DNA of 62,886 nt, the filler included. It is 6 parts of 6 records of this genome, joined end to end, with 100 filler letters (N's around TTAATTAATTAA, not from the genome) between each part and the next. Parts side by side here need not be neighbours in the genome. Positions count along the whole stretch, not along the records: positions 32,309 to 54,104 come from SRR31147125_2528; 5 more parts are not named here. One strand, written 5' to 3'. Shown piece after piece: positions 32,309-54,103 of the stretch; position 1 is the stretch's first letter, and every line of letters starts with the position of its first letter. The position numbers and the translations under genes were made by a program. Under the pieces are notes generated by a model. It searched no databases. It worked only from the letters and a program-made list of their open reading frames with translations, and had not been told where the DNA came from.

Positions 32309-33188
32309 TTACAAAGTCAGAATTATTATTTACTTCTGAAGGTGGGTTGGGCATCTTTTCAAGTTCATTTGGTAATGGTTGCATTCTTCTTGGTGGCATC
32401 TTAATCCATATTTGGTTTTGTTCGATATTTGAAAACACCATATTATTCAAACCATATGTAAAAACATTTCCACAAACTTTATCCACTTGAATGTACTCAT
32501 CAAGATATATTATTTTGACTGAAAATAAGTCTACAACATCCCCATAACGCAATTGTTTTTTCTTTTTCTGTTCATCATTATAATCTATCAAAAAACTATT
32601 TACATATACCCCATTTGTGCTTCCCAAGTCTTCAACCCACATCTCACCAAAATCATTAAAATATAAAATACAATGCTGTGATGAAACTAGGTTTAACGCT
32701 GCATGATTAATACAGATATGACTTTTTTGCAATTTATTCTTATTCCTCATAATCTTGCTTGGAAAATCACTATTTGATTTATCAGAACCAATTGTTATTT
32801 CGCCTACACGATTTGTTAGAGCTGAACTCTGCATAATATCAACTAAAGTGTAATAGTTAGTTTCGCTTTGCTCACCAAACTCTAAATAAACAACGTGAAC
32901 ATTGTTATCTGCCAATACAAGATGAGCACTGTCTTTAGTTAGTTTTCCAACGCTCTCTACGTTGTTTTCGTGTTCATCAATAATCTCTACTGAAAAAAAC
33001 TTGCTATGCTTGCTAAGCATATAACGGTAACTCACTAACTCAGGAATCCAAAAATCATTATCAATATCACTCCCAACTGTTATCTGCTTTTTACCAAAGA
33101 CATCCGGATTAAACTCGTATGATTTTCTTGACGTATAGATTTTAATAATTCTTTCTTTTCTTCTCACAACGAAATCCTCACTTAACAC
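32309..33188 (-). CDS. FHA-domain protein, probable N-terminus of an EssC/YukB-like type VII secretion ATPase (truncated)
   Basis: Degenerate FHA (ITVGS) plus FHA (ITIGS...VSSQH...VEDLGSTNGVYVN...LRYGD), then IKMPPRRMQPLPNE...PNPP resembling the EssC post-FHA linker. Likely start is GTG 33167. Confidence 0.6.
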
Positions 33189-33240
33189 TTTTAGATATAT
33201 ATACTATCTATTAATCAAAGTTTAAATAGTAAAACTGTTA

Positions 33241-34158
33241 TTATACTCTCATTATAATTACTGTAGCATTATCTTGGTTCGGTATTGCTTTTTCTTTAAT
33301 AGATTCAATTATGCTGTCAACTATTCTTTTTACACTATAGTCTATTTTTAACAGCTCCTCTAAAATTTCTTTTTCAGATAGTGTATTTGTTACACCGTCG
33401 CTACACAGCAATACTAAATCGCCACTTTCAAGACTTATCGGTTTAGTAGAAATATCTAAAACATCTATTCCTCCCATTCCAATATAACTTATCAAAGCTC
33501 CTTTTTGCGGATGATTCTTAGCTTGCTCTTTATTTATTTCCCCCGTTTGAACCATCTTCGTAAGTTCGAGCTCATATGTATGATCTTCTGATATTTGAAT
33601 TAAACTATTGTTTTTTACTATATAAATTCTACTATCACCAACTGATGCCCAATACATATTGTCATTATCCAAAATAACACTAACTAAAGTTGTTCCCGTG
33701 TCTAAATTATAACCTTGCTTGTTTTCAAACTTTGCAATTTTATCATCGATTTTAAGGATAACAGTTTTGTAAAAATTATATGGATTCACTTTTGTTTCGC
33801 TATTCATAAAAACATCACATAAATATTCCACACCAGCTCCGCTAGCTACATCTCCATCCTCCATGCCGCCCATACCATCACATAAAACTGTTAATATCTG
33901 ACCATAGTTAGATTCAACTATTGAAAAATTGTCCTGTTGGTACTCCCTATTCCCTATATACGAATAGCCATACAACTCTTTGTTTTTTGTAATTACTGTT
34001 TGATTATACTTTTGATATATTTTAGGCGTTTTTGAGACTTTTTTACTAGTTAATCGCTGATAATTATTTCTTTTCAGTAATTTTTTTATTAAAAATATAT
34101 TCAAAATTATCAATAATAAAATTCCTGCTCCAATTAAATATAAGTTCATATACATCAC
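33241..34158 (-). CDS. PP2C-family Ser/Thr phosphatase with N-terminal membrane anchor
   Basis: IGNREYQQD, LCDGMGG, GTT, SVGDSRIY, EDH, LLCSDG, QDNAT. Confidence 0.92.
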   Translation of the reverse strand: MMYMNLYLIGAGILLLIILNIFLIKKLLKRNNYQRLTSKKVSKTPKIYQKYNQTVITKNKELYGYSYIGNREYQQDNFSIVESNYGQILTVLCDGMGGMEDGDVASGAGVEYLCDVFMNSETKVNPYNFYKTVILKIDDKIAKFENKQGYNLDTGTTLVSVILDNDNMYWASVGDSRIYIVKNNSLIQISEDHTYELELTKMVQTGEINKEQAKNHPQKGALISYIGMGGIDVLDISTKPISLESGDLVLLCSDGVTNTLSEKEILEELLKIDYSVKRIVDSIIESIKEKAIPNQDNATVIIMRV

Positions 34159-34165
34159 CGATTTA

Positions 34166-35794
34166 CTAATCTAAGTACTCTATAGTATGTTGCCCTACAC
34201 CTATCTTATCTCCAATACAAAGCTCTATCTTATCTGTAACTTCTTCACCATTTAAGAATGTTCCGTTTGTTGAATCATTATCCAATAAATACAATCCATC
34301 TTTATTCAATACAATCGTACAGTGTAATCTAGAAAGTTCATCGTCATCCAAATTTATATCAGCCTCTGAGCCTCTTCCAATTGTCAGCCTATCTACTATT
34401 ACTTCATTAATATCTATCTCATAACCATCAAGATCAGCGCACTTTAACCTAATCCTTACACCATCTGAAATTTTATTTTTGCTTAACATAATAATTATTA
34501 AAACAACTGTAATTAAGCCTAGTGCAATAAATACAATAATCAATCCCCACTTGACTTTTTCTACTTCCTGTTTTACTTCAGGAGTAAATGATACTTGTTG
34601 TCTATCTAATTTGTTTTTTTCCATCGAGTAATCTGATATTCCGTATGTCGACAATGTATACTCTTCATTTTTTAGCGAATCACTTAACTGCAACACAGCT
34701 TTCTTATCTTTATATGTCGAACTAATAATTGAAATACTATCCCCGCCAGCACTCTTCAATTCATAGCTACTAGCTTTTTCAGCATTTATCACTTTTTCAC
34801 TAAAATTAATGATAATCTTTTTCTCACCGTCATTCTTCACATTTGTAATCCTAGGCAATGATGTATCCTTAATATAGTCTGATAGTTGAACTGTCTTCGT
34901 ACCTTGCATACTTGATTCACCATCTGTAAACTCAACCTTAAGCGTTGCTTCATTTTGGGTTATCATATTATCACTTGATATACATTTAATAAAATAGCCT
35001 ATGTTAACATCAGTAAGAACATCATCAACACTTTTCTCAATTTCCTTTTCAAAGTATACATTCGCACCTGTGCTCCTAGATAATTCTCCCAACAGACTTA
35101 TATTTTCCGATTTTGATGAAGGCACCGCAACAGAGAAAATTGGAACTTCTGCTACTTCAACCTGTTTTCTAAATTCATTGTCAGTAACTCCTGCCTGAGA
35201 ATAGTCTTTGCCATCTGTAATTAAAATCATTACTTTTCTTTGAGGTAAATCCAAGCTGTCCGACTTTGCTATATTTACGGCTTTATAAACAGCGTCCTTG
35301 AATTTCGTTCCTTTGGAATTGTTCTTTAAGTTTTCAACCTTGTTTTTAGCTTGCTCTCTATCCTCTTCACCTTTTAGCAAAACATTTACCTGTTCTCCAA
35401 AAGTAATTAGAATAAATGAATCATTAACTCCTATACCACTAATCCATGTATTTAGTTTTGCTTTAACAATCTCAAAATCCTTTGAGCGTATTGATCCTGA
35501 AACATCCAAAAGAACAATATACGTATTTCCATTTTCGTTATTTCTAAAATTAGATATCTTTTTCACATCTAATTCTTCGTCTTGCAATATAACTTTTAAT
35601 TTTTGTGCATCAATGTTTCCTTTATTTACTACGTTTTGATCTTCATCAATAAATTTAAAATATACTTCAATCTCAGGCTTGTTAACTAACCCTTTCTCAA
35701 TATCAATCCTAGTAAAATCATCCTTAGCATAAGCAACACTAGATACGGAAAAAAATAATATTAAAAATAATAAAAAGCCACAAAAATTTTTCAT
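34166..35794 (-). CDS. secreted vWA + Ig-like domain, TM, cytoplasmic FHA protein
   Basis: Signal peptide; MIDAS DVSGS and ILITDG; INFSEKV Ig-like; TM; IGRG...SRLH...DSTNGTFLNG FHA. Confidence 0.88.
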   Translation of the reverse strand: MKNFCGFLLFLILFFSVSSVAYAKDDFTRIDIEKGLVNKPEIEVYFKFIDEDQNVVNKGNIDAQKLKVILQDEELDVKKISNFRNNENGNTYIVLLDVSGSIRSKDFEIVKAKLNTWISGIGVNDSFILITFGEQVNVLLKGEEDREQAKNKVENLKNNSKGTKFKDAVYKAVNIAKSDSLDLPQRKVMILITDGKDYSQAGVTDNEFRKQVEVAEVPIFSVAVPSSKSENISLLGELSRSTGANVYFEKEIEKSVDDVLTDVNIGYFIKCISSDNMITQNEATLKVEFTDGESSMQGTKTVQLSDYIKDTSLPRITNVKNDGEKKIIINFSEKVINAEKASSYELKSAGGDSISIISSTYKDKKAVLQLSDSLKNEEYTLSTYGISDYSMEKNKLDRQQVSFTPEVKQEVEKVKWGLIIVFIALGLITVVLIIIMLSKNKISDGVRIRLKCADLDGYEIDINEVIVDRLTIGRGSEADINLDDDELSRLHCTIVLNKDGLYLLDNDSTNGTFLNGEEVTDKIELCIGDKIGVGQHTIEYLD

Positions 35795-35803
35795 TTATTA
35801 CAC

Positions 35804-36550
35804 CTACCCTATTTTAACTACTATCGCAGAGTAATTATCCATTTTCTTTCTAATACCTTTTTTCTCAACTATTGACTTCATAGCCAACAGCCAATCATCA
35901 ATCTCAGAACTGTTTTCTAAACATCTAAGCATCTCTTTTTCAGTAATCAGCTCCCAAAAACCATCAGAGCATAGAAGAAATGCATCTCCACTTTTTATAT
36001 CTATTGGTTTTTCCAGCAACTCAAATTTATCTTTACCCTGCCAATCAGATCCCACAACTTTTAATAGGCGATTACGGTCCTCATGATTACGAATATCAGC
36101 TGGTTTTATTCTGCCGATTTGTACTAAGGCTTGCGGTACACTATGGTCTTTTGTCATATACTTTAGTGCTTTTCCACTAAACATATATAGCCTAGAATCA
36201 CCAATATGTCCCCAAAAGGCTTTATCACGTTCAATAGCTAAAACTACTAATGTTGATTTCGCTTTACTATTTTGCAATTCGTTTTGTATAACATCAATAA
36301 GCTGTTTTTGGCTGTTTCTAAAACTTAAAGCTGTTTTATCCTGAATATTCAATCTCTCTTTTTGTAAAAATGTCTCAACAACAGCATTTACACATATATT
36401 TGAAGCAACCTCACCATGCCCATGTCCACCTAAACCATCAGCAAGAATAAATAATTCAGTATTACCACATGTTGCAATCCTAATACTATCCTCATTACGT
36501 CTCATATTTCCTATATTTGTTATTCCTTTTGACTTTAAAAATATTGGCAT
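35804..36550 (-). CDS. PP2C-family Ser/Thr phosphatase
   Basis: RRNED, LADGLGGH..GEVAS, HIGDSRLY, TKDHS, LLCSDGFWE, DNYSA. Confidence 0.92.
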   Translation of the reverse strand: MPIFLKSKGITNIGNMRRNEDSIRIATCGNTELFILADGLGGHGHGEVASNICVNAVVETFLQKERLNIQDKTALSFRNSQKQLIDVIQNELQNSKAKSTLVVLAIERDKAFWGHIGDSRLYMFSGKALKYMTKDHSVPQALVQIGRIKPADIRNHEDRNRLLKVVGSDWQGKDKFELLEKPIDIKSGDAFLLCSDGFWELITEKEMLRCLENSSEIDDWLLAMKSIVEKKGIRKKMDNYSAIVVKIG

Positions 36551-36678
36551 ATAATTACATCCTGTTTTTTATATAATAATATTTTACACAATCTATTTGT
36601 AATTTTGTTACAGATGGATTATAATCGCTACATATTGGTTTAAAATTACATTTAATATCACCTAGTGAGAGGTATTTA

Positions 36679-37398
36679 TTGATGACTCATAACATATTAG
36701 TCCTAGAAGATAACGAAATTCAAAGACAACATTTAAAAAAAATAATCAATGCATATGATTTAAATTATCGTGCATACATATGCAAAAATATTTCCGAAGC
36801 CTTAGAAGTGTACAGCAAGAAAAGCATATCACTATATATCTTAGATGTTCATCTTGGCAATGAGAATGGAATAGAATTTGCAAAGTATGTAATAAAACAA
36901 AATAAAAATAATCCTGTGAAGCTTATCTTCGTATCTGCTCATAGACAATATGCTTTAAAGGCAATAAACGAAACCCATTGCTTTGACTATCTCTTAAAAC
37001 CTTATTCAAAATTTGATTTATATAAAGTAATGGCAGAAATAATGGATCTGCAAGTCAAAAAAAATACTGTACATCAATTTATCCACTTCTATATAAATAA
37101 ATATAAAATTAGTCTTAACATATATGATATTGTATATATTGAGTATATTGATAGAAAGTTAAATGTAGTAACCACAGATAAAAAATATTTGTGTTCTCGA
37201 AAATCGTTATCTACTATTACTCAAGAACTCGAAGATAACTCTATATATGATTTAGTCAGATGTCATAAATCTTATATGGTTAATAAAAAACATATTACTA
37301 AAATTAATATGAATTCGCGAAATTCACATATAAACACAATTAGAGGTAGTATACCTTCATCTAAAGTATATTTAGATAATATAAAAAATTTAATTTAA
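36679..37398 (+). CDS. LytTR-family response regulator (AgrA/VirR-like)
   Basis: ILVLED, YILDVHL..NG, FVSAH, DYLLKP; LytTR IVYIE...RCHKSYMVN. Confidence 0.92.
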   Translation: MMTHNILVLEDNEIQRQHLKKIINAYDLNYRAYICKNISEALEVYSKKSISLYILDVHLGNENGIEFAKYVIKQNKNNPVKLIFVSAHRQYALKAINETHCFDYLLKPYSKFDLYKVMAEIMDLQVKKNTVHQFIHFYINKYKISLNIYDIVYIEYIDRKLNVVTTDKKYLCSRKSLSTITQELEDNSIYDLVRCHKSYMVNKKHITKINMNSRNSHINTIRGSIPSSKVYLDNIKNLI

Positions 37399-37578
37399 TT
37401 CATTTCAGACCACAAAAAATCACATTTAATCCAACAATTAACTATCGTTTCTTGAATAGTGCTATTTTATTATATATAAATTTGTAGATATAACTCTATG
37501 ATTCAGTTATATATATATTGATATTTTGTCCTGTTTCATAGTTTGTTATTTTATATAATAATTTTTAGGAGGTACAAT

Positions 37579-40110
37579 ATGGATTTAAACTCTTTGTGTC
37601 ATAGTTGCTTAGAAGGCACAATTGTAAATGGTACATGTGATCAATGCGGATATTCAGGTGAGAATGATCAAGACAATTCTGTTTGTTTGCCAAAAGGTAC
37701 AATACTCAATGATAAATATGTTGTGGGTTCAGTATTAGGCATTGGTGGTTTTGGAATAACCTACAAAGCTATGGATTATAATTTGGGAATAAAATATGCC
37801 ATAAAAGAATTTTTTCCTGAAGGTCTTTGTATACGCCAAAACGATAACATATCTATACAAAAGTTTTCTGGAAGTGCTGGAGATGATTATGATTACGGTT
37901 TAGAAAGCTTTGTTCGCGAGGGCGAAACCATGGCTCTATTTAATAAGATTTCATCAATAGTAAAAATCCATAATTATTTTCATGAAAATGGAACTGCTTA
38001 CATTGCTATGGAGTATTTAGAAGGCGAAACTTTGAAATCTTACTTAAAAAAACTACCGGATGAAAAAATGCAGTGGAATGATGTAAAAGAATTTATCAAA
38101 CCTGTAATACAAGCTTTAAAAGTTGTTCATAATCATGGAATAATTCACCGAGATATAGCCCCTGATAATATCTTTATTACAAGTAATGGAGAAATAAAAG
38201 TATTAGACTTTGGTGCCGCAAGGCAAGCACTTGGTGACAAGTCAAAAAGTCTATCTGTTATTTTGAAACAAGGTTATGCTCCTCCAGAGCAATATACTTC
38301 AAGAGGTAAGCAAAAAGCATGGACAGATATATATGCTCTTGCCGCAACAATGTACAAAATGTTAACAGGTCAAACTCCGCCGGAAGCTATGGAGCGAATG
38401 ACTGGTGAATCAATGGATACACCAATTGAAATGGGTGCTGTAATTTCTGTAAGTGTTAACAATACAATAATGAAAGCATTAGAGTGCGAATACCAAAAGA
38501 GACAACCAAGTATTGATGAGTTCGAATTAGAATTATTTGAAAACGATGGTGAAATTGATATCAAAGCAATAAAAAAAGCAATTAGAAAGAAGAAAATGAA
38601 AAAGCGCATTATTCTTTTTTCTTCAGTTGCTGCAGGCTTAATTGCAATAGGCTTAGTAGTGTATTTCAGTTTTTCTAGTCCGAACGACATTACTGTATTG
38701 AGCAGAGTTGAAATACCTCCTGTAGTAGTATCGGATTTTGATAATGAGCAGTTTGAAAAAATTATCCGCGAATGCTTAAACAAACCAAATGGCGATCTTT
38801 ATGAACATGAGTTGTCTGAAATCACACACCTAACTATATATGGAGATGAGTATTACTCTATAAATAATAAGCAAGAATGGAATCTAGATTATTGGAGAGA
38901 TCACATCTATTATATTGATGGTGAAAAGCATAGTGGCAGTGGTAATTTTAGCAATCTCAATGACATAGACAAATTGCCAAATCTAACTGCTTTAGATGTT
39001 AGATTCAATAGCGTCTCTGACTTAACACCAATAATTGAGCACGGCAACATTAAATTTTTAAATCTAGCTTCAAATAAAATTACTGATATTTCTGCTCTTT
39101 CTGAAATTAATGGTTTAATTTCAGTAAACGTATCTGGCAACCCTCTGCCATTAGGTAGTACCACTTTATCTACAACTAAAGATATGATGGATAAAAAAAC
39201 AGTTATCATCAACCAAAGGTATAACGACAGATTAATTGCTGCAAATAGAAATCATTTTATTGCACTTGTTGATGATGGAACTGTTGCAGTGCACTCATCT
39301 GTAAAGGATAATTTAAAGCATCCAAAATACAAAATTGCAGACTGGACAAACATAGTATCAGTTGATAATGGATTAAATCATACAGTTGGGCTAATGGAAA
39401 ATGGGATTGCATTAGCAGTGGGTTCAAATGAGAAATATGGCCAATGCAATGTTCAAGAATGGAAAGATATTGTTGAAATAGTCTGTGGAGGTGCAATTTC
39501 AGTTGGCTTAAAAGAAGACGGTACAGTTACTGCAATAGGTTCAAACAGCGGAAGAGTTGACATATGGAATTGGCAAGATATCGTTTCGCTTGATGCATAT
39601 GATCAAGTTGTTGTTGGAGTAAAATCTGATGGTACAATAGAATCAACATACTGGTTTGGAAATTTGAAGTATCAAAACTATATATCTCAAAGAGAATATG
39701 AGTGGGAAAACATTGTAGATGTTGCAGTTGGAGCTAGACATACCGTTGGTTTAAAAAATGATGGTACTGTGCTAGCCGTTGGAAAGAATAGCGCAAAACA
39801 ATGCGAAGTATCGGAATGGACTGATATTGTTGATTTAGCAGCAGGTGAATTACATACTATTGGTTTAAAGTCTGACGGTACTGTACTGGCCACTGGTTGG
39901 ATCAAAGGCGGAAGGTGCGATGTATCTGACTGGACAGATATAATAGATGTAGATGCCTCTAGCGATTATACTATAGGTCTAAAAGCTGATGGAACTATAC
40001 TAGTTGCTGGAAACTCATATCTTGAAACCGAAATCGTAGATTGGAATATTAACAAACCGAGTAGCATTACTACTAACGAAGCTACTAAATTGGAGGAAGA
40101 TGTACAATGA
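37579..40110 (+). CDS. membrane Hanks-type Ser/Thr kinase with Zn-ribbon, short LRR block and RCC1/BLIP-II-like propeller ectodomain
   Basis: AGGAGG RBS before ATG 37579; CxxC..CxxC; GIGGFG, AIKE, HRDIAPDN, DFG, PPEQ; TM; LRR; repeated HTVGLKxDGTVxAxG..GQCxVxxWxDIV. Confidence 0.92.
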   Translation: MDLNSLCHSCLEGTIVNGTCDQCGYSGENDQDNSVCLPKGTILNDKYVVGSVLGIGGFGITYKAMDYNLGIKYAIKEFFPEGLCIRQNDNISIQKFSGSAGDDYDYGLESFVREGETMALFNKISSIVKIHNYFHENGTAYIAMEYLEGETLKSYLKKLPDEKMQWNDVKEFIKPVIQALKVVHNHGIIHRDIAPDNIFITSNGEIKVLDFGAARQALGDKSKSLSVILKQGYAPPEQYTSRGKQKAWTDIYALAATMYKMLTGQTPPEAMERMTGESMDTPIEMGAVISVSVNNTIMKALECEYQKRQPSIDEFELELFENDGEIDIKAIKKAIRKKKMKKRIILFSSVAAGLIAIGLVVYFSFSSPNDITVLSRVEIPPVVVSDFDNEQFEKIIRECLNKPNGDLYEHELSEITHLTIYGDEYYSINNKQEWNLDYWRDHIYYIDGEKHSGSGNFSNLNDIDKLPNLTALDVRFNSVSDLTPIIEHGNIKFLNLASNKITDISALSEINGLISVNVSGNPLPLGSTTLSTTKDMMDKKTVIINQRYNDRLIAANRNHFIALVDDGTVAVHSSVKDNLKHPKYKIADWTNIVSVDNGLNHTVGLMENGIALAVGSNEKYGQCNVQEWKDIVEIVCGGAISVGLKEDGTVTAIGSNSGRVDIWNWQDIVSLDAYDQVVVGVKSDGTIESTYWFGNLKYQNYISQREYEWENIVDVAVGARHTVGLKNDGTVLAVGKNSAKQCEVSEWTDIVDLAAGELHTIGLKSDGTVLATGWIKGGRCDVSDWTDIIDVDASSDYTIGLKADGTILVAGNSYLETEIVDWNINKPSSITTNEATKLEEDVQ

Positions 40111-43100
40111 CAACTAATTTCTGTTATAAATGTTTTAATGAGCTAAACGAAAATGAAAATACATGTCCAATTTGCGGATATACCTATCATGCTCAATCTG
40201 AAAATGCTGTAAATCTTAAACCTGGAACAATTTTGAAGGGAAAGTATTTAATTGGTGAAGTTTTAGGTCACGGTGGTTTTGGAATTACTTATATAGCAAT
40301 TGACTTAACTCTAAATATCAAGTATGCGATTAAGGAATTCTTCCCTGAGGGTTTATGCGGAAGAGGAAAAGATGAAGTAACTGTTCAATCCTATACCGGA
40401 ACAGATGGTGAAAACTACGAAAAAGGGCTTAATAGTTTTCTTGAAGAAGGTAAAACTATGGCTATGTTCAACAAGGTTGAAAGCATAGTTCAAATCGAAG
40501 AATACTTTGAAGAGAACGGTACAGCTTATATCGTTATGGAGTATCTTGACGGTGTAGATTTAAGCGCATATTTAAAAAAACAACCAAATAGTATACTCAA
40601 TTGGGAACAGACATCAACAATCATAAAGCCGATAATGACCGCTCTAGTTGAAGTTCATAAAAAGAAAATTATTCACAGAGATATTTCTCCAGACAACATT
40701 TTTATTACGAAAGACAATACAGTAAAATTATTGGATTTTGGTGCCGCTAGGCTTGCTTCAGAAGACAATCAAAAGAGTCTATCAGTTGTTTTAAAGCAAG
40801 GTTATGCTCCACCTGAACAATATTACACAAGAGGCGAGCAAGGTCCTTGGACTGATGTTTACGCTCTTTCAGCAACAATTTATAAAATGCTTACTGGTGA
40901 AAGACTTTGTGAAGCTATGGATCGTATGATGGGCGAAGAGTTAATTTCTGTGCAAGAAAAAGGCGTAGCTGTAAATGATATTGTTGATAAAGCAATGTCT
41001 ATTGCTCTCCGTGTTGACCATCAAAAAAGATACAAAAATGTTAAAGAATTTGAACGTGCAATATTTAGGTCATATACAATAAAAGAGGACAATTTATTTA
41101 ATATTCTTAAGTCTATCGCCAAAGAAAAGAAGCCTATCGGTGATAAGATTTCATATTTAAAAGCTCTTTTCATCGAAATTTGCATACTTGCTTATGATTC
41201 TACTATCAAAGGGGCAAAGTGGCTATGGAAGCAAATAAAAAGATACTATGCTAAACTGTTTATTAGGGAATTCAGAGATAGAAAATTCATTAAAAACTTT
41301 AGCATATCTACAGCATCTCTTGTTTTTACAATAACCGCATATATATTATTCTTCACTGGAGGTCCCCTTTCTTTAATCAACAATCCAAATCATGTTATTA
41401 AGTTCAATGACGAAGCGATTGAGCAAAGTGTTCGAGCATCTTTAAATAATTTTGAAGGAAATATATTATATAAAAATTTACAAGATGTTAAATCTCTTAG
41501 TATTGAAGCAGATGAAATTGACTCTGCTAAGGATTTGAGAAAGCTCTATAACCTGCAAGCTTTAAAGTTGAGTGAAGAATTTGTCTTGTCTAATGAATTC
41601 AAACAAAACAGAAGTGTCATCAAAAAAGTCTCGAAAGAAGGATATGTATATGTAGCTATCGATTCTATATCTAATCTAGATACTATAACAAAATCAGTTA
41701 GAGGTCTTGATGGGTTAGAAATATCTAACCTTTCAACTACTGATTACGAACATATAATTAATCTATTTGAAGATAAAGATTATACTTATTTATCATTAGT
41801 TAACTATGATTTAAACATAAATGTTAATGATATCGGCGGGTTAAAAAAACTTGAGGTATTAGAATTAAAACAAACAGAAGAAAATAACATTATAGATATT
41901 GATAACTTGGATTTTTTAAACTCAATAAATGCACTAAAATCTTTGTCAATAATCAACTGTAATCCAGTAGATTTATCTGTATTAAACCATAGTAGAACAT
42001 TAGAAAAACTTATAGTAAATGGCACAGTTTCTAATGAAATAGCAGGTATAACTGATATACTTCCTATTTCTAACTTCGCAAATCTAAAGGAACTAAGCCT
42101 GATAGACTGTTCTGGATTAAATGACTTATCTTCACTTTCAAGTTTAAAGCAATTAGAAACACTTAAATTAGTAAATGCATTTGAAGAAGAAGTAAACTTG
42201 ACTGACTTAATTCCAATTTCGAGAATGACTAATCTTCAGAGTCTTTCTCTTGAAAACTTTTCAAAACTAGAAGATATTAATCCTTTAAGTAACTTAACAT
42301 CGTTAAAGGAATTATCACTAAACAACTGTAGCTCTGTTAAAAATATCGATGCATTATTTAATTTTAAATCTCTATCATATCTAGATTTAAATAATTTAAA
42401 TAGTATTAAAGATATAGATGCCCTACAAGGATTAACAGATCTTTATTATCTTGATTTAACCAATTGTAGCGGTATTTTTTCAATAGATTCTATAAAAAAT
42501 AATACAAAAATTAGATATTTATATTTATCAAATTGTGTAAATATCAGTGATATTTCTGCAATAAAAGATTTTACTCAAATGAAAGATTTAAATCTATCCA
42601 AATGTAGTAAAATTGAAAACGTTGATGTTCTAAATGATATGAAAAAGCTTGTTAATCTTGATCTTACTGATTGTTTTATGATTTCTGATATTTCATCAAT
42701 CTCAAACTCAAGTGAGATTAAAAACCTCAGTTTAGATAATTGCCTAAACATAGATGATATTTCAGCTCTTTCAAAGTTAACTAAGCTTGAATGTTTAAAT
42801 ATTAATAACCTTACAAAAATAAATAGTGTTGATTCGATAAAGAATATGGGTAATCTAGCTGAACTCAAAATGGCATACTGTTATAATATATCAGATATTT
42901 CATGTTTTAGTAATCTAATCAATCTCGAAACATTGGATATAAGTTTTTGTAATAATATTTCTGATGTTTCTTCGATGCAGAACCTGACATCTCTTGTAAC
43001 GTTGAATGCAGAGAATTGCTATTCAATCAATAATATTGATGCTTTTTCAGAATTATCATCACTAGATTATTTAAATATATCAAATTCTGATTCCTTATCT

Positions 43101-46238: not shown

Positions 46239-47504
46239 ATGGATCCCAACGTACCAATGTATATTATATGTACATTTATAACTAATTTTTCAATTGCATA
46301 TGGATTTTCATTTTTCAAGTCTGATTTTAAGCAAAGGTTTTGGCAATACTTTTTATTAGGACTTGGATTTGTTTGCCTTCAGTTAATTAATATATTTTCA
46401 GGCGTGTCTTTTGACACTGTATATGCTATTCCAATATCTTATGCTGGAATGATTGTTTTGTATTTTATAATTTTTAAAGAAAATATTATTAACACAATGT
46501 TATCCTTTTTTACAGGATACGTTCCAGTAATTCTTTGGGATATGATTACCCTTGCATTTATCGCACTTATTACTAAAGCCTCTGTAGTTGAGTTTTTATC
46601 AAATGATTGGAATCGTCTAGCTGTAGTTTCACTGTACCCATTTTTATATTTCTTACTTGGTAAATTCGTACCTTTTAAACGGTTTTTCGACTCATTAAAA
46701 GAATACCATCCTGTTATGTCTTTGATATCATCTAATATCTTGTTATATGTTCTATGCTTTATGTTATTAATTGAAGATATACAGACTGATGCTGAACCAT
46801 CTTTTTTCTATATATTCTTTTTGATAACTCTAGTTATTGGTGTAAACATAATGATGGTTCGCTCATTTATAAAAAACACAAACAAAATGAAACAAGCACA
46901 AGAATATAGTCATTTAAAAGAAGAAGTTACTCCTTTGATTCAGAATAATATACAGCAGCAACATGATTTTAAAAACCATTTAGCCACCCTCAAAACATTT
47001 ATAAATAATGAAAATTCTGTTGGAGTAAAATATATTGATTCGTTATCAAGTAGCTTGCAAAAAATTAATGAGTACTTAAAGTGGAACAACCCTATTTTAG
47101 GTGCATTAATTCAAAGAAAAATTCAAGAAGCAATCTCATTTGATATTAATTTCGAGACCATTTCGTTTGGCGTAGATGACCAGTTTCCTATTGAAGATTA
47201 TGAATTAGTATCTGTTGTCTCAAATTTAATTGACAATGCTTTAGAGGCGACTATATTACTACCTATTAATCAAAGAAATATTAATTTAACAATAGGAAGA
47301 GATACTAATTTATTTATTTCTGTCGAAAATTCATGTGATATAGATAATAAAATTCTGAATAGAATATTCCAGCGTAGTTTTTCAACAAAGAAAAATGGGC
47401 AAGGATTAGGACTATATAATGTAAAACAAATCGTAGAAAAAAGTAATGGTAAAATTGATGTATATCCTAAGGCAAATAACATTGAAATAAAAATAATATT
47501 TTAA
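46239..47504 (+). CDS. GHKL sensor histidine kinase (AgrC/VirS-like)
   Basis: Multi-TM N-terminus; QHDFKNHL H-box, SNLIDNALEA, FSTK..GQGLGL. Confidence 0.92.
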   Translation: MDPNVPMYIICTFITNFSIAYGFSFFKSDFKQRFWQYFLLGLGFVCLQLINIFSGVSFDTVYAIPISYAGMIVLYFIIFKENIINTMLSFFTGYVPVILWDMITLAFIALITKASVVEFLSNDWNRLAVVSLYPFLYFLLGKFVPFKRFFDSLKEYHPVMSLISSNILLYVLCFMLLIEDIQTDAEPSFFYIFFLITLVIGVNIMMVRSFIKNTNKMKQAQEYSHLKEEVTPLIQNNIQQQHDFKNHLATLKTFINNENSVGVKYIDSLSSSLQKINEYLKWNNPILGALIQRKIQEAISFDINFETISFGVDDQFPIEDYELVSVVSNLIDNALEATILLPINQRNINLTIGRDTNLFISVENSCDIDNKILNRIFQRSFSTKKNGQGLGLYNVKQIVEKSNGKIDVYPKANNIEIKIIF

Positions 47505-47537
47505 ATAAAAGCTTTAAAACAAAGGACATTATCTTAT

Positions 47538-48833
47538 ATGAATGATATGACAATAATGATAATATGTTTATTTCCAACAAATCTTTCTGTTGCGTTCGGT
47601 TTCTCATTTCTTAATTCTGATTTTAAAGAAAATTGGTTTAAATACTTGGTTCTTGGACTTCTTTTTGTTGGCATACAATGGATAATGGTTCTAACGGGTA
47701 TTGCCTATGACACTGTATATTCAGTTCCAATAGGATATATTTGCATGGTTTCATTTTACTATTTTCTTTTTAAGGAAAACTTAATTAATAGTATTCTTGC
47801 TTTTTTCATAGCAGGTATACCGCGAATTCTATATGAATACAGCCTGTTTAGCATTATAACAACATTTTTTAATGGCGATATGCTGCAAGTAATCAATAAT
47901 AATCAAAACCGTTTACTTATATGCTTTTCGTTCTTGCTACTATATATTATTCTAAAAATACTTGTTCCTTTTAAGCGATTACTATCTCCACTAGAGCCAC
48001 ATTTCCCCATAATTTCACTGGTTGGTGCTAACATACTTTTATATGTTCTATGCTATCGCCTTATGCTTGATAGCTATAGATTTGACCATATACCATCAAT
48101 ATCTTATTTCCTATTTCTTTTATTAGTAATAATGGCAATAAATGCACTAATGGTAGCAAGTTTTATAAAAAATTATAATGAAATGAAAAAAGTAAAAGAG
48201 TATGGAAAACTAAAAGAAGATGTACTCCCTCTTATTGAAAACAATATTCAACTACAACACGATTTTAAAAATCACCTTACTGCTTTAAAATTATCAATTG
48301 CAAATGACTATTCAAAAGAATCTCAATACATAGACTCTCTAACTGAAGAAATAAATAATAATAACGAACACATGAAATGGAACAACCCTATTTTAGGTGC
48401 TCTTATACATCAAAAGAAACAAGAGGCCTATTCTCTAGGAATCAAGTTCATTACGACCTCTCATCATGTAGATAATCAATTTCCTATTGAAGATTACAAC
48501 TTAATTTCAATGGTATCAAATCTTATCGATAATGCACTTGAAGCTATAAGTAATCTTTCTCCAGAAAAAAGAGAAGTATTTATGACTATTGGATCAGATG
48601 AAAAGTTATTTATTTCTGTTAGCAATACAGTCGATATTGATAAGATAGAGCTTAGCAAAGTCTTTAAAATGGGTTATTCCACCAAAGGCAAAAACAGAGG
48701 TCACGGTTTATCCTATGTCAAGAATATTGTTGATAAATCGAAAGGAGATATCGAAATCTATCCATTAAAAGATATGTTAGAAATTAAAATAACTTATGAT
48801 TATTCCAAAACTTCTGATACTTTGTCAACATAA
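47538..48833 (+). CDS. GHKL sensor histidine kinase (paralogue of upstream gene)
   Basis: QHDFKNHL, WNNPILGALI, SNLIDNALEA, YSTKG..RGHGL. Confidence 0.92.
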   Translation: MNDMTIMIICLFPTNLSVAFGFSFLNSDFKENWFKYLVLGLLFVGIQWIMVLTGIAYDTVYSVPIGYICMVSFYYFLFKENLINSILAFFIAGIPRILYEYSLFSIITTFFNGDMLQVINNNQNRLLICFSFLLLYIILKILVPFKRLLSPLEPHFPIISLVGANILLYVLCYRLMLDSYRFDHIPSISYFLFLLLVIMAINALMVASFIKNYNEMKKVKEYGKLKEDVLPLIENNIQLQHDFKNHLTALKLSIANDYSKESQYIDSLTEEINNNNEHMKWNNPILGALIHQKKQEAYSLGIKFITTSHHVDNQFPIEDYNLISMVSNLIDNALEAISNLSPEKREVFMTIGSDEKLFISVSNTVDIDKIELSKVFKMGYSTKGKNRGHGLSYVKNIVDKSKGDIEIYPLKDMLEIKITYDYSKTSDTLST

Positions 48834-49044
48834 GTTATTCCTACTGGAATCATGTTATCAATCGTCTTAAGTTGAATATTTGAACCGCGATGGTTTCTAT
48901 CAAACCTTATTACAAAATCTATATTTATAATAATTGAATATAAGTTTTCTGCTAATTTTTTATTATTCTCTAATATTAAAATATTTTGCAGTATTCTTAA
49001 TCTCTTTATCGTGTATAATTTTATTATATTATCTGTACAGCATA

Positions 49045-51131
49045 TTATTCAGGCAGTTTAACACCTTCAATTTCTGTTGCTCGTTCGGCATAGATATTGC
49101 CTCTATCCGCGCCTGTCGCAACAATAGTACCATTATTTTTTATTCCATATACACCTTCGAGACCAAAAGTAATAGCAACCAAATCTGTCCAATCCTGCAC
49201 ATGGCATCTATTACGATAGTTATTGCCCGATGCAACGGCTGTTCCATCTTCCTTTAATCCCAAGATAGTAGCATCAGCTATTTTAATATCTACAATATTT
49301 ACCCAGTCATCACAGTTTACTCTTTCCCAACCTGGTGCACTGCCTTCTAATATAGTCGTCCCATCCGCTTTCAAAGCGAAAAAGATCTTACCTGTATTAT
49401 CATTTAGCACCTTTACAATATTCTCCCAACTTTCAAAGTTGATTTTATATTTATTATCCCCTGTGTAAACAACACTTCCATCTTTTTTTATACCTACGAC
49501 AAGAGTTTTTCCTATATGTATATCTACAATATCCGTCCAACCATCAAAGTTAAATTCCTCTTCAAATCCACCTGTCCAAATAACCGTTCCATCACGTTTT
49601 ATACCAATCGTATAATTGTAATCTGCAAATACGTTTGCAATATCGCTCCAGTCTTCCACATCGCATTGCCCATATGTATTATCACCGACGGCAACAACCA
49701 TTCCATCAGACTTTAACCCAACCGTAGTAATGTCTGTACTTGCAATGCTTACTATATCTGTCCAGCTTTGAACATTCGTACTTCCGTTTCTGTTCCACTC
49801 TGATGCAACCACTCTTCCATCTGATTTTATACCAAAACTAGCATCTGGGGGACCCCTAGTTCCACCTGCTATTGCTACAACATCCGTCCAATCATCTACT
49901 TTGCATTGCCCTCCATCATTTGAACCAAAAGCAATCGCCGTTCCGTCCTCTTTCACAACAATCAAGTCGTCATTAATGGTCGCCCTTTCTAAATGTTGCC
50001 AATCATTTTCCAGCGAATACTGATATATCTCCACTTCTGTTTGTCGAATTTGCGCTTTACTGTCTTTATAACTTCCAAGCTCTTTGTAATTTTCTATCGC
50101 CATATAAAAATCGTTATTTTCACGATAGTTTGATGCTTGTATATATTTAGCTTCCAAAACTAACGTTTCGCTATCTTTATACTCTAATATCTCGTTGAAC
50201 GTTTGTATCCCATAATCAAATTCACCGCCACTTATCATGTTATTTGCATACTCATATTTTGAAGCAATGATTAAGTCCTCGCTGTCCTTATAGCCATCAA
50301 GTTCGGTTAAAAGCACTATGGCACTTTGATATTCACCATTGTTCTTATGCGATATTGCCTTTTGGTATTGTGATTCGGTGAGCAAGCTTTGGTTATCCTT
50401 ATACTCCAAGTTATCGCTAAAATATGAAATCGCCGTGTCATATTCACCCTTATTCATTTTTTCGACCGCATGATTGTACTTAATATTTGGATTTAGCAAA
50501 AAGAAGTATCCCACTAATCCAGCTGCTATAACCACAGCCGTTATTATTGATATTAGTCCGATTGTCTTTGATCTTCTTTTATTTTGCTTTTTTTCTTTGT
50601 GCGTTTTACTTGTCGCTTAGGCGTAGCATCTTCACTATCATTTTGAATTCTAAGCGTTTCACTCTTTGTATTATTGTTATATTTCTGATCGCTTCCTTTC
50701 AATTCATCTGGAAGTGTTCGAGCTATTAATTTCTTAAAATCATCGTCATTCATATCATGTTGCATAATCGCCTGATAAATTGAAGTATGCAATTTCCAAT
50801 CCAAGGGTAAATCGGTATCCTCAATACAAATGGCAAGGAAATCTTTTTCTGAACTCACCGCGGTAAACGCTTCTTTTTTAACATTGATTGAATTCACTGA
50901 GTTCTGCGAAATAAACACAATAAAATAACTACATTTATATAATGCTTGGGCAATTTCGTTGACCCATTCGTTACCTGGGTCTATCCCTTCGTCATACCAA
51001 AGGCGATAACCCATATTATGCAGTTTTTCCATGAGTGGGTATACTTTTTCAGCATCCTTATGAGCATAACTAACAAAAATATATGGTTCTTCGCCAGAAT
51101 ACGCGTCAAAGGGTATGTTTGCAATATCCAT
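49045..51131 (-). CDS. TIR-TM-TPR-like-RCC1-repeat membrane protein (one frameshift in A7 run at ~50588-50594)
   Basis: TIR (FVSYAHKD, WYDEGIDPG, NVKKE) in the 50553-51149 frame. Adding one A joins it to the QNKRRSKTIGLISIITAVVIAAGLVGYFFL TM and the YKDS-type TPR and RCC1 repeats of 49045-50535. Confidence 0.82.
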
Positions 51132-51185
51132 TTCAACCTCTTTACTCAATAATATATTATATCTGCTATTAAATTACTTCATTTA

Positions 51186-53272
51186 TCACTCGGGCAACTT
51201 AATGCCTTCCATGTACGTTTCCCCTTCTTTTGCAAACACCGAACTTTTAAAATCTCTATTCAGCCCTGTCGCGACAACCGTCCCATCGGATTTAAGCCCT
51301 ATAGTGTGCGTACTACTCACTTCCACATTGACTATATCCGTCCAATCCTCAACTTCGCATACACCATAAATGTTATTCCCTGCTGCCACAACCGTTCCAT
51401 CGCTCTTTAATCCAACAATATGGGTAACTTCATCAAAGTTGGCTTTCTTGATGTTCGTCCAACCTGTCATGTCGAATTCTAAATCATATAAATCAACAGC
51501 GGCAATGACAGTTCCATCTGTTTTATGCCCCGCAATATAAGCTTCCGAAACACCGATATCCATAATGCCTTCCCAGTCATCATAATTCAGCTTGCTTCTA
51601 TTCTTACCAGCCCAAAGAATACTACCATCTTCTTTTAACCCAACCGTAAAGCTACGTGCAGTGGATATCGCCACCACATCTGTCCAATTTTGGACATCGC
51701 ATTGCCCAAACGTATTATCCCCAGTCGCAACAACCGTCCCATCAGATTTAAGGCCAACAGTTCGCCAACGCTTATACGATAGACTTACAATATCCGTCCA
51801 ACCTTCAACATCACATTGACCGTAAGCATTCCAACCCGTAGACACGACTGTTCCATCCATCTTCAGTCCAAAACTGCAGTTTTCATCTGCCACAACCTCA
51901 ACAATATCCGTCCACTCCTCTACATTGCATTGTCCATATTTATTATTCCCCGTCGCAACAACTGTTCCATCCATCTTCAGTCCAAAGCTACAGTCACCCG
52001 CTGCCACTACGACCGCAATATCTGTCCAACCTTCTACGTTACACTGTCCCTCGCCATTGTCGCCAACGGCAAAACCCGTTCCATCTTCTTTCACTCCAAT
52101 AGAATGCATTTGCCCAGCTGCAATCGTTGGTCTTTCAATGTCTTTCCATTCTGTAGCAAGTACATTCTGGTATATTTCAACACCAGTTTGCTCCATTTGT
52201 TGTTTGCTGTCTTTATAGTCTCCAAGCTCAACGTAATTAGCAATTGCCCGATAGAATTTATTACTTTCACGATAATATTCCGCTTGCTGATATTTGGTCT
52301 CTAAAATCATCGACTCACTATCCTTGTATTCAGAAACATCCTCGAACATCTCAAGGGCCTTATCAAATTCGTTATTGTCCAAAACCTCATTAGCATATAG
52401 ATATTTGATTTCGGTCATCATTTCTTCGCTGTCTTCATAGTCGGGAATATCAGACAAAAGATCGATTGCTTTCTCATAATCACCATTATCTTTTAGTGAT
52501 ATCGCGCTCAAGTATTGAGATTTTAAAAGCATACTCTCATTATCTTTATAGTCAATATTTTTTTCAAAATACAAAATCGCTTCATCGTAGTTTCCAGCAT
52601 TCATCTTTTCTACAGCATTATTATAATTTGCTTCTGGAATGCGCAAAATGTAAATAGCCATATAGGCTGAAATAGCAAAAAGCCCAACCACAACTGAAGC
52701 AATCCATATTATCCTTTTGCCCTTTTTAGGCTTTTGTCTTGTTTTTTTAGATTCGCTAAGGCTTCGTATGTTGATATTATTGGTATTCTGCAAATCCACT
52801 TCTGTTTCTAAGTCGTTGTTTTGCGGAACAATATATCCTTCTCTTAAATCGTCAGAAAATGTCCTGCTAATTTTCTTTTCAAAGTTAGCATCAGACATAT
52901 TATATTGCAATATTGCTTGATAAATAGATGTGTTCATCTCCCAATCCATCGGTAACTTTACATCTTCAATATATATTGCTAAAAAGTTTTTATTAGTGCT
53001 AACAGCAGTAAACGCTTCTTTTTTTACATTGATTGAATTAAGCGAATTTTCTGAAATAAACACAATAAAATAACTGCATTTATATAACGCTTGAGCAATT
53101 TCGTTGACCCATTCGTTCCCAGGATCTATTCCCTCGTCATACCAAAGTCGATAGCCCAATGCAGTTTTTCCATTAAAGGATATACTGTTTCAGAATCCTT
53201 ATGCGCATAACTTACAAACACATACGGCTGTTCACCCGTATATGCTTCAAACGGTATTTTTGTTATGTCCAT
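51186..53272 (-). CDS. TIR-TM-TPR-like-RCC1-repeat membrane protein (one frameshift near 53160)
   Basis: ATG 53272 gives MDITKIPFEAYTGEQPYVFVSYAHKD, matching the paralogue; continues in the 51186-53159 frame: TIR, TM, YKDS repeats, 38-aa RCC1-like repeats. Confidence 0.85.
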
Positions 53273-53536
53273 CTAAAACCACCTAACTATTGTTTGTACT
53301 TATTAAAAAATGAGAATGTATTATTCATAATTTTGCATATTTACTTATTTATCAACAATAAAATAATACTAAACCAACATACAAAAGTCAATGAAGCACA
53401 CAAATAGCTATTACTAAAATGCAGGAATAAATAGTAAATTACGATTATTTGTTTAATCAGTTACATGATATACATAAATATTATTACACCAAATTCTATT
53501 CAGTTCTTTAAATCTATATACTTTACTGATGATAGC

Positions 53537-54103
53537 TTACCCCATAGGAATCTCAATACTGCTCATACGATTAAACACAACCCAGTCTGCATTTTCTGCC
53601 AATGCATCATATCCAATTTCGACAATAATCTTATCAAGCTTTTCATAATCATTTTCAGCATATGCCTTTTCAAACTCAACTTTTGCTTGAGTAAACACCA
53701 TGATCATTCTTTTATACTGACTTAGCTCAACATCAAATTTTCTTTGTTCAAAATAATTATAAAATACCGCACCAACAGATAAGAAAAAATCAACCGCAAA
53801 TAAGAATAAAGAATCAACAACTTCGATTCTTCCAAATTGAACTTGGAAAAATAATAGCACAGCTGATAAAATACCCAAAACAAACAGTGTATTTCTCACA
53901 CCTAAAAACCGTTTAATTTTATCTTTGTTTTCTTCACTCTTTTCACAAAAATAATCTATTTGTCCATTAATCCAGCATAGTTTTAGGTCATGATAATTTT
54001 TGCTTGGCGGATTCGCGCATAGTTCGTAGTTTATATCCATAGAAATATTCCGAATCGCTGCAAGCACCCATCCTAGTTCCCATTCATTCTTTCTAGAATA
54101 ATT
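53537..54103 (-). CDS. C-terminal part of a SLATT/DUF4231-like 2TM membrane protein (5'-truncated)
   Basis: WINGQIDYF, two TM helices, YKRM..VF..A, IGYDALAENADWV..R pattern; frame open to the contig edge. Confidence 0.5.
   Translation of the reverse strand, partial: NYSRKNEWELGWVLAAIRNISMDINYELCANPPSKNYHDLKLCWINGQIDYFCEKSEENKDKIKRFLGVRNTLFVLGILSAVLLFFQVQFGRIEVVDSLFLFAVDFFLSVGAVFYNYFEQRKFDVELSQYKRMIMVFTQAKVEFEKAYAENDYEKLDKIIVEIGYDALAENADWVVFNRMSSIEIPMG

Follow-up and report, generated by a model that had tools for sequence, protein, structure and literature searches.

The DNA analysed here (the window, 62,886 nucleotides, positions 1-62886) consists of six contigs, with N blocks between them at 8943-9042, 15781-15880, 22704-22803, 32209-32308 and 54105-54204. 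The subject of this work is a stretch of signalling genes that coincides exactly with the fifth contig (32309-54104, 21.8 kb), and above all a set of genes within it, here called unit A, for two receptor-type Hanks kinases, two PP2C phosphatases, a membrane protein with vWA and FHA domains, and the beginning of an EssC-like ATPase of the type VII secretion system (T7SS). The other genes are a LytTR response regulator with two AgrC-like histidine kinases (unit B), and two TIR receptors with a SLATT-like membrane protein (unit C). Contig 5 is occupied by 13 long open reading frames (ORFs), all of which bear the signalling domains that a first-pass annotation of this DNA had named (Pfam). The list was confirmed with corrections: both TIR genes turned out to be interrupted, the SLATT match was below threshold and the TPR matches lay below the cut-offs.

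Relatives of the contig 5 proteins were found in Oscillospiraceae, Acutalibacteraceae, Lachnospiraceae and other Clostridia metagenome-assembled genomes (MAGs). Given these relatives, a Bacillota-type EssC, and the LytTR and AgrC-like genes, contig 5 is assigned on sequence grounds to a Clostridia-like monoderm (Bacillota) genome, and all evidence from the contig points there. Membrane topology was predicted from hydrophobic segments and the numbers of lysine and arginine residues (K/R) that flank them. By this method, the kinase, TIR, FHA and PP2C domains are predicted to be cytoplasmic, and the vWA, leucine-rich repeat (LRR), TPR-like helical repeat and RCC1 domains to lie outside.

The core of unit A is a minus-strand operon that runs from 36550 to 32309, with gaps of 9, 7 and 52 bp between its four genes. 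The first gene (35804..36550) encodes a soluble PP2C phosphatase (PP2C_2, 1e-13). It is followed by a gene (34166..35794) for a protein composed of a signal peptide, a vWA domain, an Ig-like domain (Big_5), a transmembrane (TM) helix and an FHA domain (FHA 6e-17, VWA_2 1e-14, Big_5 6e-4), and then by a second phosphatase gene, TM-PP2C (33241..34158; PP2C_2, E 4e-14; Stp1/IreP family at 170 bits, below the cut-off). The TM helix of the latter (residues 6-24) has no K/R before it and 6 after it, which places the catalytic domain, by prediction, in the cytoplasm. The last gene (32309..33188) encodes the N-terminal 293 residues of an EssC-like FtsK/SpoIIIE ATPase, including an FHA domain (Pfam FHA, E 7e-11).

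The vWA-TM-FHA protein belongs to a sizeable family, with 244 representatives at E<1e-30, nearly all of 560-630 aa; a word-based homologue search returned only 2 full-length matches. Across 30 family members, the MIDAS residues of the vWA domain (D97/S99/S101/T163/D194) were kept, as were the FHA residues G473/R474/S488/H491/N510, which form the canonical phosphothreonine-binding set. The best NCBIfam match of this FHA domain was FhaB/FipA, at 51 bits and below the cut-off.

The identity of the truncated ATPase, which the first-pass annotation had guessed to be EssC-like, was upheld by comparison with the N-termini of two FHA+FtsK_SpoIIIE proteins of 1566 and 1569 aa; the alignments show 46% and 44% identity and cover 97% and 95% of the fragment. 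One of these full-length relatives matches the EssC model TIGR03928 with 690 bits over positions 3-1252 of 1296 (cut-off 778); an NCBIfam scan of the 293-aa fragment by itself gave no EssC call. The fragment can be aligned as far as the PPR...PxPPSE linker, which in P0278, P0279 and the homologues from genomes G078 and G264 is followed by the TM helices. The contig stops at EssC residue 293, and the TM helices and FtsK/SpoIIIE ATPase domains would fall beyond its end; the SLATT-like gene is cut in the same way by the other end. When aligned with EssC from G078 and G264, the FHA domain of the fragment shows GS in place of the phosphothreonine-binding GR, with Ser, His and Asn retained. As the phosphate-binding Arg is missing from the EssC FHA, the vWA-TM-FHA protein is the more likely phosphothreonine reader of the two.

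The two kinase genes lie on the plus strand, ~1 kb from the operon, and overlap by 4 bp. The first (37543..40110) encodes a protein of 855 aa with a zinc ribbon, a kinase domain, a TM helix, a short LRR block and an RCC1 propeller (Pkinase 5e-36, RCC1_2 9e-28), and the second (40107..45914) a protein of 1935 aa with a zinc ribbon, a kinase domain, a TM helix and an LRR ectodomain of ~1500 residues (Pkinase 2e-33, LRR_4 3e-71 in 13 stretches). The kinase-TM-RCC1 architecture noted in the first pass was borne out for the 855-aa protein, whose TM helix (356-374) has 10 K/R before it and 1 after it; the short LRR block had gone unlisted. The cytoplasmic parts of the two kinases are 52% identical, with the catalytic loops HRDIAPDN in the 855-aa protein and HRDISPDN in the 1935-aa protein. 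Among the cassette-linked kinases (L089-L139 and the window), the loop tends to read HRDxSxxN instead of the usual HRDxKxxN: of the 36 ORFs with a recognisable motif, 27 have S at the variable position, 2 have A and 7 have K, and HRDxSxxN may mark a distinct kinase clade. Scans of genome contigs and metagenome contigs gave no close relatives of the 855-aa kinase. Both window kinases start with a CxxC...CxxC zinc-ribbon-like motif (37543-37700 and 40107-40200), which database TIR-RCC1 receptors also have.

The neighbourhood of vWA-TM-FHA genes was compared in 12 genomes (G001, G002, G048, G078, G117, G264, G267, G348, G351, G374, G456 and G547), within at most ~18 kb to either side; annotation relied on iterated profiles built from the window domains, and on Pfam for selected ORFs. 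As controls, 97 stretches from the same class were used, 80 of them RCC1 loci found with a TIR/RCC1 alignment and 17 of them TIR stretches. In whole-genome searches, the vWA-TM-FHA gene was present in ~4/201 genomes of one Clostridia order and in 8/399 genomes of the class. A PP2C gene adjoined it in all 12 genomes compared, lying directly upstream in 5 genomes other than the source of the window, as it does in the window itself. A Hanks kinase gene was found beside it in 10 genomes (not in G048 or G348), additional FHA proteins likewise in 10/12, and a kinase-FHA fusion in 7/12. In the controls, PP2C genes were seen in only 2/97 stretches and kinase genes in 6/97 (Fisher p 3e-14 and 1e-8, respectively, against the cassette loci). 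Judged by these neighbourhoods, the association of Hanks kinase, PP2C, FHA and EssC genes that the first-pass annotation had proposed is real and recurrent in Clostridia, with EssC in a minority (G078 and G264). The same comparison did not extend it to the rest of the contig: TIR, AgrC-like kinase and SLATT-like genes were each found in 0/12 of these neighbourhoods, and LytTR in 2/12 as against 9/97 controls, which is the background rate. The co-occurrence expected of the contig as a whole thus passed for kinase, FHA, PP2C and a minority of EssC genes and failed for TIR, SLATT and two-component genes.

The ectodomains of the neighbouring kinases varied between relatives, being, where recognised, RCC1 in G001 and G002, PASTA in G456 (three kinases), G267 and G117, and LRR_5 (BspA-type) in G374. 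Particularly dense in FHA genes are the cassettes of G002:C16 (L089/L090) and G001:C1 (L091): as many as seven of their ORFs bear an FHA domain, and they also contain two genes for PP2C and one for a kinase fused to FHA. As many as three kinase-TPR-like-RCC1 genes stand in tandem at their flanks. The outward parts of their FHA proteins are varied and comprise a PrsW protease, a trypsin-like protease, DUF975 and vWA.

Two of the 12 relatives, G078 and G264, have EssC adjoining the cassette. G078 and the window share the order vWA-FHA, PP2C, FHA-EssC. In G264 (L138:697-10477 and L139, on G264:C47), one strand carries genes for YukD, EssC, a WXG100 protein, three ORFs (one with TPR) and two more WXG100 proteins, and then the cassette, with vWA-TM-FHA, a kinase, PP2C, a TPR-LRR protein and a 1318-aa vWA/TIG protein; the gene content suggests that this T7SS operon is complete. 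From the EssC in the same order in G078 and the T7SS operon in G264, the proposal of the first-pass annotation that sensing on the outside controls secretion gains genomic support for its kinase-FHA-EssC part, and parallels have been published (PMC11217815, PMC13622651).

We therefore read unit A as a threonine-phosphorylation switch, made of receptor kinases, FHA readers and a PP2C reset, that would be coupled to type VII secretion, and we put the probability of this reading at roughly 55%. What the sequences show for unit A is its domains, their predicted topology, a neighbourhood conserved among relatives and the position next to EssC, and from these we infer all steps of the following mechanism. 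With its RCC1 propeller or LRR ectodomain, each kinase would recognise a ligand, either extracellular or on a cell surface, and would phosphorylate threonine residues, its own or those of partner proteins. These phosphothreonines would serve as docking sites for the canonical FHA domain of the vWA-TM-FHA protein, whose vWA domain with its MIDAS would face outward, and the docked complex would switch the adjacent secretion ATPase EssC. The two PP2C phosphatases would reset the switch.

Several points weigh against this reading. The link to EssC is found in a minority of cassette genomes, being adjacent in 2/12 and on another contig in one (G267), and 8 of the 10 cassette genomes searched for EssC gave only FtsK-sized matches. 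With EssC present in 20/399 genomes of the class sample, its enrichment in cassette genomes is weak (2/8 versus 18/391, one-sided p 0.056). The compared genomes are mutually related, so their counts are not independent events, and the remainder of the T7SS locus of the window (WXG100, YukD) would fall beyond the contig end. Within unit A, the lost phosphate-binding Arg means that the EssC FHA domain may not read phosphothreonine itself, the window has no counterpart of the kinase-FHA fusion of 7/12 relatives, and the kinases have another residue in place of the catalytic-loop Lys, which may affect their activity. The kinase genes are on the other strand from the operon, between the response-regulator gene and the two histidine-kinase genes, and co-regulation with the operon is unproven. 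Finally, the PASTA kinases of many relatives point to sensing of the cell wall rather than of foreign cells.

This last point leads to a different explanation, in which unit A would be an envelope homeostasis or growth-control cluster, the Clostridial analogue of actinobacterial FhaA/FhaB-PstP-PknA/PknB, and the adjacency to EssC would be incidental or secondary. Besides the flanking PASTA kinases (three in G456, and those of G267 and G117), this would account for the FhaB/FipA match of the FHA domain, for the G002 cassette abutting parE/parC, for the absence of a visible EssC from most cassette genomes searched, and for the trypsin-like, PrsW and DUF975 parts of other cassette FHA proteins, which suggest surface proteolysis or remodelling. 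However, the low frequency of the cassette in the order and class genomes is unlike that of a housekeeping system, its ectodomains (RCC1, LRR, PASTA) are swapped freely, as in diversifying sensor families, and the cassette stands in or beside a T7SS operon in the window, G078 and G264. We regard an envelope function as possible, though on balance unlikely compared with a secretion switch.

Systems in which threonine phosphorylation and secretion are connected were compared with unit A. Secretion by the type VI system (T6SS) of Pseudomonas aeruginosa is gated post-translationally by the threonine-phosphorylation pathway (TPP) PpkA-PppA-Fha1, formed by a membrane Hanks kinase, a PP2C and an FHA protein. 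Architectures with kinase plus vWA, as in PpkA, and kinase plus LRR were already listed in 2005 (PMC1262709). Unit A shares with the T6SS pathway the combination of a Hanks kinase, a PP2C and an FHA domain, as well as a vWA domain on the outer side of the membrane. The two differ in that the T6SS pathway has its vWA domain on the kinase and a soluble FHA protein, whereas the window has vWA and FHA joined in one protein, with type VII secretion in a monoderm cell.

Closer parallels are found among the T7SS themselves. Garrett et al. 2024 described T7SSc-j, and the available text of that paper reports kinases, PPM phosphatases and FHA proteins in T7SSe/f/j, proposes a regulation by phosphorylation, places T7SSf and T7SSj in Clostridia, and describes for T7SSe/j a membrane kinase whose C-terminal domain is extracytoplasmic, in TsjD a TPR domain (PMC11217815). 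As far as they are described there, T7SSe/f/j are matched in the window by the FHA-headed EssC-type ATPase, the PPM/PP2C phosphatase and a separate FHA protein; T7SSe/j by the membrane Ser/Thr kinase with an extracytoplasmic C-terminal domain, of which the window has two, ~1 kb away and on the other strand; and T7SSf by the partial conservation of the EssC FHA phosphothreonine residues, with GS for GR in the window. In T7SSe/j, by the same account, these residues are conserved, which is not so in the window, and the FHA protein is of the DUF6382-FHA TsxJ type instead of an exported vWA-Ig-TM-FHA protein. The kinases with an RCC1 propeller and a 1500-residue LRR, the presence of two phosphatases and the occurrence of the vWA-TM-FHA cassette mostly without any EssC further set the window apart from T7SSe/f/j as reported in that text.

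A kinase/phosphatase/FHA pathway for threat sensing, Esr, was shown experimentally to control Esx secretion in a preprint by Wang et al. 2026 (PMC13622651). According to its accessible part, the pathway includes a vWA protein, MoxR and a surface beta-propeller sensor, occurs only in Actinomycetes and has esx genes as neighbours in 40% of 3502 cases; its FHA protein is sometimes fused to EccC, and its sensor domain has diversified. Set against that description, the window shares kinases, a phosphatase, an FHA output, a vWA protein and a surface beta-propeller, in different fusions, and a link to T7SS that is also seen in G078 and G264. The differences from the Esr of the same text are that no MoxR, transglutaminase (EsrD) or Ig-filament EsrA was found by Pfam in any of the 13 window ORFs, that the window propeller is fused to the kinase, that the window vWA domain lies outside the cytoplasm and shares one protein with FHA, and that the phylum is another. 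The MoxR-vWA ternary conflict systems (PMC7159879), which need MoxR and a cytoplasmic vWA protein, do not fit, since the window has no MoxR; moreover, its vWA domain follows a signal peptide. An operon with vWA, kinase, FHA and PP2C was reported for Deinococcus in a 2026 preprint, as far as its available text goes.

Unit A, as read from its domains, thus resembles known phosphothreonine-gated secretion without the defining features of Esr (MoxR, transglutaminase) or those of T7SSe/j, and the analogy suggests that it is a Bacillota counterpart of the T6SS TPP, T7SSe/j and the actinobacterial Esr-Esx pathway. The first-pass statement that no characterised system has this combination is out of date for the kinase-FHA-secretion part, on the available text of the two T7SS papers (PMC11217815, PMC13622651). 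A full-text literature search, which did not cover the supplementary locus lists of the T7SS paper, found no description of the Clostridial vWA-TM-FHA cassette or of kinase-RCC1 and TIR-RCC1 receptors, and a preprint with an atlas of serine/threonine kinases has no mention of RCC1 or LRR.

The genes of unit B bracket the two Hanks kinase genes. The REC-LytTR response regulator gene (36679..37398, plus strand; Response_reg 4e-16, LytTR 9e-14) is divergent from the PP2C operon, with a spacer of 128 bp. The AgrC-like GHKL histidine kinase 1 (46239..47504, plus strand) has 6 hydrophobic segments and matches HATPase_c_5 (1.5e-12) and, below the cut-off, the AgrC model (46 bits); kinase 2 (47538..48833, plus strand) is a paralogue, 49% identical to it. 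Both have 5-6 TM segments, so that the Agr-type combination of a REC-LytTR regulator with a polytopic HPK10-type GHKL kinase is present. No AgrB/AgrD-type peptide or processing genes were found among the contig ORFs, the 324-bp gap in front of the kinase 1 gene has small ORFs of which none is convincing or AgrD-like, and four intergenic regions had no direct repeats suggestive of LytTR boxes. A scan for promoters and terminators was uninformative (106 promoter-like sites versus 103.5 expected; 3 terminators versus 6.9 expected). By its genes and neighbourhoods, unit B is an ordinary peptide-type (Agr-like) two-component system, and not a conserved partner of unit A.

Unit C includes two genes on the minus strand for receptors with a TIR domain, a TM helix, a helical repeat and RCC1. 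Copy 1 (49045..51149; TIR_2 6e-21, ThsB_TIR 22.5 bits with a cut-off of 21.2, RCC1_2 3e-14) appears in this assembly as two ORFs (50553-51149 and 49045-50535), with a change of frame in an A7 run near 50587, between the TIR domain and the TM helix. Read cover came from one public run only, at ~5x depth and probably from the source sample, which gives no independent support for presence or habitat; an independent Logan assembly of that single run covers the stretch in short pieces only. Its contig has one extra base behind 50587 that joins both ORFs in one frame, and copy 1 is therefore probably intact, with ~700 aa. Copy 2 (51186..53272; RCC1_2) is also split, into ORFs 53126-53272 and 51186-53159: the frame is lost after 37 residues that match copy 1, and the sequence has 4 nt fewer than copy 1 inside the TIR domain. 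As the Logan contig agrees with the window across this split, the frameshift in copy 2 looks like a real lesion. The copies share 61% identity in the TIR domain, 45% in the rest and 77.5% at the DNA level over a 405-bp match that encodes the TIR domain, and on these figures they are old paralogues.

In an AlphaFold model of copy 2 (mean pLDDT 70.5), residues 155-187 form a TM helix, residues 191-336 helical repeats (mean pLDDT per block 83-96; as 'TPR', these are below the Pfam cut-offs) and residues 346-632 a seven-bladed propeller. Foldseek matched the model to BLIP-II (TM-score 0.77), UVR8 and the ectodomain of plant CRINKLY4 (TM-score 0.64). BLIP-II (PDB 3qi0/1jtd), a secreted inhibitor of beta-lactamase, and CRINKLY4 (7a0j), the latter with the architecture propeller-TM-kinase, resemble the window proteins in having extracellular seven-bladed RCC1-like propellers that bind proteins; with identities of 23% and 17%, the match is structural only and does not imply a shared ligand or descent. 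The TIR domain matched the PADLOC ThsB models with E 7e-6 to 3e-5. Its Glu93 is invariant in 11 sequences, and in a profile search it falls on a Glu in Cat1, the bacterial TIR 7uxr and TLR TIR domains, a position that we take to be the catalytic Glu of NADase TIR domains. The alignment suggests that the window TIR domain is competent.

Directly upstream of copy 2, on the same strand, lies the SLATT-like gene (53537..54103, minus strand), whose frame is open to the contig end and whose product has two predicted TM helices (73-91 and 95-113). The SLATT call of the first-pass annotation is a weak one: ESM-Atlas neighbours at 0.96, in clusters that are partly SLATT_1, and the 2-TM hairpin favour it, whereas the Pfam match to SLATT_1 (E 1.4e-3) reaches 19.1 of the required 26.3 bits and PADLOC gave no match. 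For the contig as a whole, PADLOC returned generic kinase (PD-T4-6, mad6), PP2C and ThsB-like TIR matches only, so that the check suggested in the first pass found pieces and called no system.

Receptors of this general type are common in Clostridia MAGs. The module of TM helix, helical repeat and RCC1 had 4857 matches among 8000 scored candidates, and by hand count the best 120 matches include 31 fusions to TIR_2 and 43 to Pkinase. Of the 80 RCC1 loci, 27 contain genes for Zn-ribbon-TIR-(repeat)-RCC1 proteins, often in tandem, and in these 27 loci FHA was found in none and a kinase in one. The Zn-ribbon-TIR-TPR-RCC1 receptors (L001-L080) have the same TM helix, YKD-type helical repeat and RCC1 domain as the window proteins, at 36-40% identity over aligned rows. 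They differ in that the window proteins start with another TIR subtype and have no Zn-ribbon head, and in that the 4-TM partner of the Zn-ribbon receptors (19/27 loci) is absent from contig 5. This partner is a ~240-aa protein with four TM helices, a C-terminal 'RYSDP' motif and no Pfam family, encoded beside the Zn-ribbon-TIR-RCC1 gene and often directly upstream on the same strand (e.g. L009:1852-2589, L022:4508-5227, L067:2513-3301). It was considered as a relative of the SLATT-like ORF and rejected (hhalign probability 0.2).

Relatives of the window TIR subtype at E <= 1e-20 (33-43% identity) were found in 11/399 genomes of the class, often in several copies. Around these genes, in 17 stretches, RCC1 fusions numbered 0, and kinase, FHA, PP2C and SLATT genes beside them were each 0. 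Genomes G218, G289, G311 and G318 have 5-6 matches each to this subtype (L170-L186), and the C-terminal 150-550 aa of the L170-L186 proteins had no match to the domain profiles used.

The juxtaposition of TIR and SLATT-like genes recalls a defence system, and unit C may be compared with type VII Thoeris, in which, according to the available part of its description, a TIR protein acts with the SLATT effector ThsH through a cyclic ADP-ribose (cADPR) signal (bioRxiv 10.64898/2025.12.03.692087). On this explanation, which is compatible with a secretion switch in unit A, the receptor TIR would survey the cell surface and make a cADPR-type signal that opens the SLATT membrane effector. The gene arrangement, in which a small 2-TM SLATT-like gene immediately precedes the TIR genes in the same orientation, fits the type VII pair as partially described, as do the TIR score above the ThsB_TIR cut-off, the PADLOC ThsB matches and the alignment of the invariant Glu93 with the Glu of NADase TIR domains. 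As against Thoeris in that description, the window TIR is part of a single-pass receptor with an extracellular helical repeat and RCC1, the SLATT domain is weakly recognised (below the Pfam cut-off, no PADLOC match), and the gene pair was not found in relatives (0/17 stretches): none of the 17 stretches had a SLATT-like ORF, and the SLATT_1 family was not found in any of the 10 genomes with window-type TIR genes that were searched. The TIR copy that adjoins the SLATT-like gene is, moreover, the frameshifted one. ThsB proteins are small and cytosolic, unlike the 700-aa receptors of the window. A Thoeris-like function is therefore doubtful. As judged from its genes and their relatives, unit C is a separate TIR module with at least one damaged gene, and it is not a conserved partner of unit A.

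The first-pass annotation had gone further and proposed a single integrated immune island. In that proposal, all 13 genes form one pattern-recognition island in which kinase, TIR and histidine-kinase receptors converge on secretion and on an NAD-derived signal. The 21.8 kb do consist entirely of signalling genes, and the kinase and TIR receptors share a type of ectodomain, with RCC1 parts that are 39% identical and a module of TM helix, helical repeat and RCC1 that is found fused to both TIR and kinase domains among the best 120 matches. However, this 39% is no closer than the identity to proteins from other genomes (35-48%), and the neighbourhood counts contradict the proposal from each side: no TIR, AgrC-like kinase or SLATT gene around the 12 vWA-FHA loci, no FHA in the 27 TIR-RCC1 loci, TIR and kinase together in only 1/80 loci, and no kinase, FHA, PP2C or SLATT in the 17 window-type TIR stretches. 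One TIR copy is also frameshifted. We consider an integrated island very unlikely; the TIR, SLATT and two-component parts are a juxtaposition, probably due to chance.

That juxtaposition could also be a product of the assembly, if contig 5 were chimeric or mis-assembled and its gene order had no biological meaning. The ~5x depth in a single run and the Logan cover in short pieces leave room for this, as does the mixed composition of the window. The G+C content is 35-40% in contigs 1-3 and 31-37% in contigs 4-6 (31.6% in contig 5), and the tetranucleotide use of contig 5 groups with contigs 4 and 6 (r 0.55-0.61) as opposed to contigs 1-3 (0.43-0.50). Contigs 2 and 3 carry TonB/SusC/SusD genes (Bacteroidota-type), and contig 1 a rhamnogalacturonidase-like gene. 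Given these two compositional groups, a Bacteroidota genome and a Clostridia-like one are probably combined in the bin, and the window is probably a mix of two organisms. However, the tetranucleotide profiles of the two halves of contig 5 are correlated (r 0.66), other genomes show the unit A gene order too, and the Logan pieces over the TIR region match the window except for one homopolymer base. An assembly artefact is thus highly improbable. Unrelated to the signalling stretch, contig 6 (window 54708-57820) contains a lipoprotein-like ORF without a family and then a 733-aa ORF with a weak Mbeg1-like match.

A broader idea may be formulated from the shared ectodomains, and we offer it as a speculation that is unlikely to hold in full. 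Clostridia would possess a receptor layer with one swappable kit of ectodomains (RCC1, LRR, PASTA) and two outputs, in which HRDxS kinases would mark proteins with phosphothreonine for a vWA-TM-FHA hub that fires the T7SS at neighbours, and TIR receptors with the same ectodomain would turn a signal from outside into an NAD-derived messenger for a SLATT pore; both arms would stand side by side in the window. If true, this would amount to Toll-like and receptor-kinase-like pattern recognition in a bacterium, and its kinase arm would correspond in Bacillota to Esr-Esx as a sensor of contact or threat.

For the contig itself, the striking 'immune island' of TIR, LRR-kinase and RCC1 genes is mostly adjacency and not a system, and this negative result matters too. 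Type VII secretion in Bacillota delivers antibacterial toxins, and to our knowledge the trigger that makes it fire is largely unknown. The cassette described here, with receptor kinases, a vWA/FHA adaptor, two phosphatases and EssC, would offer a concrete trigger pathway for the T7SS of gut Clostridia.

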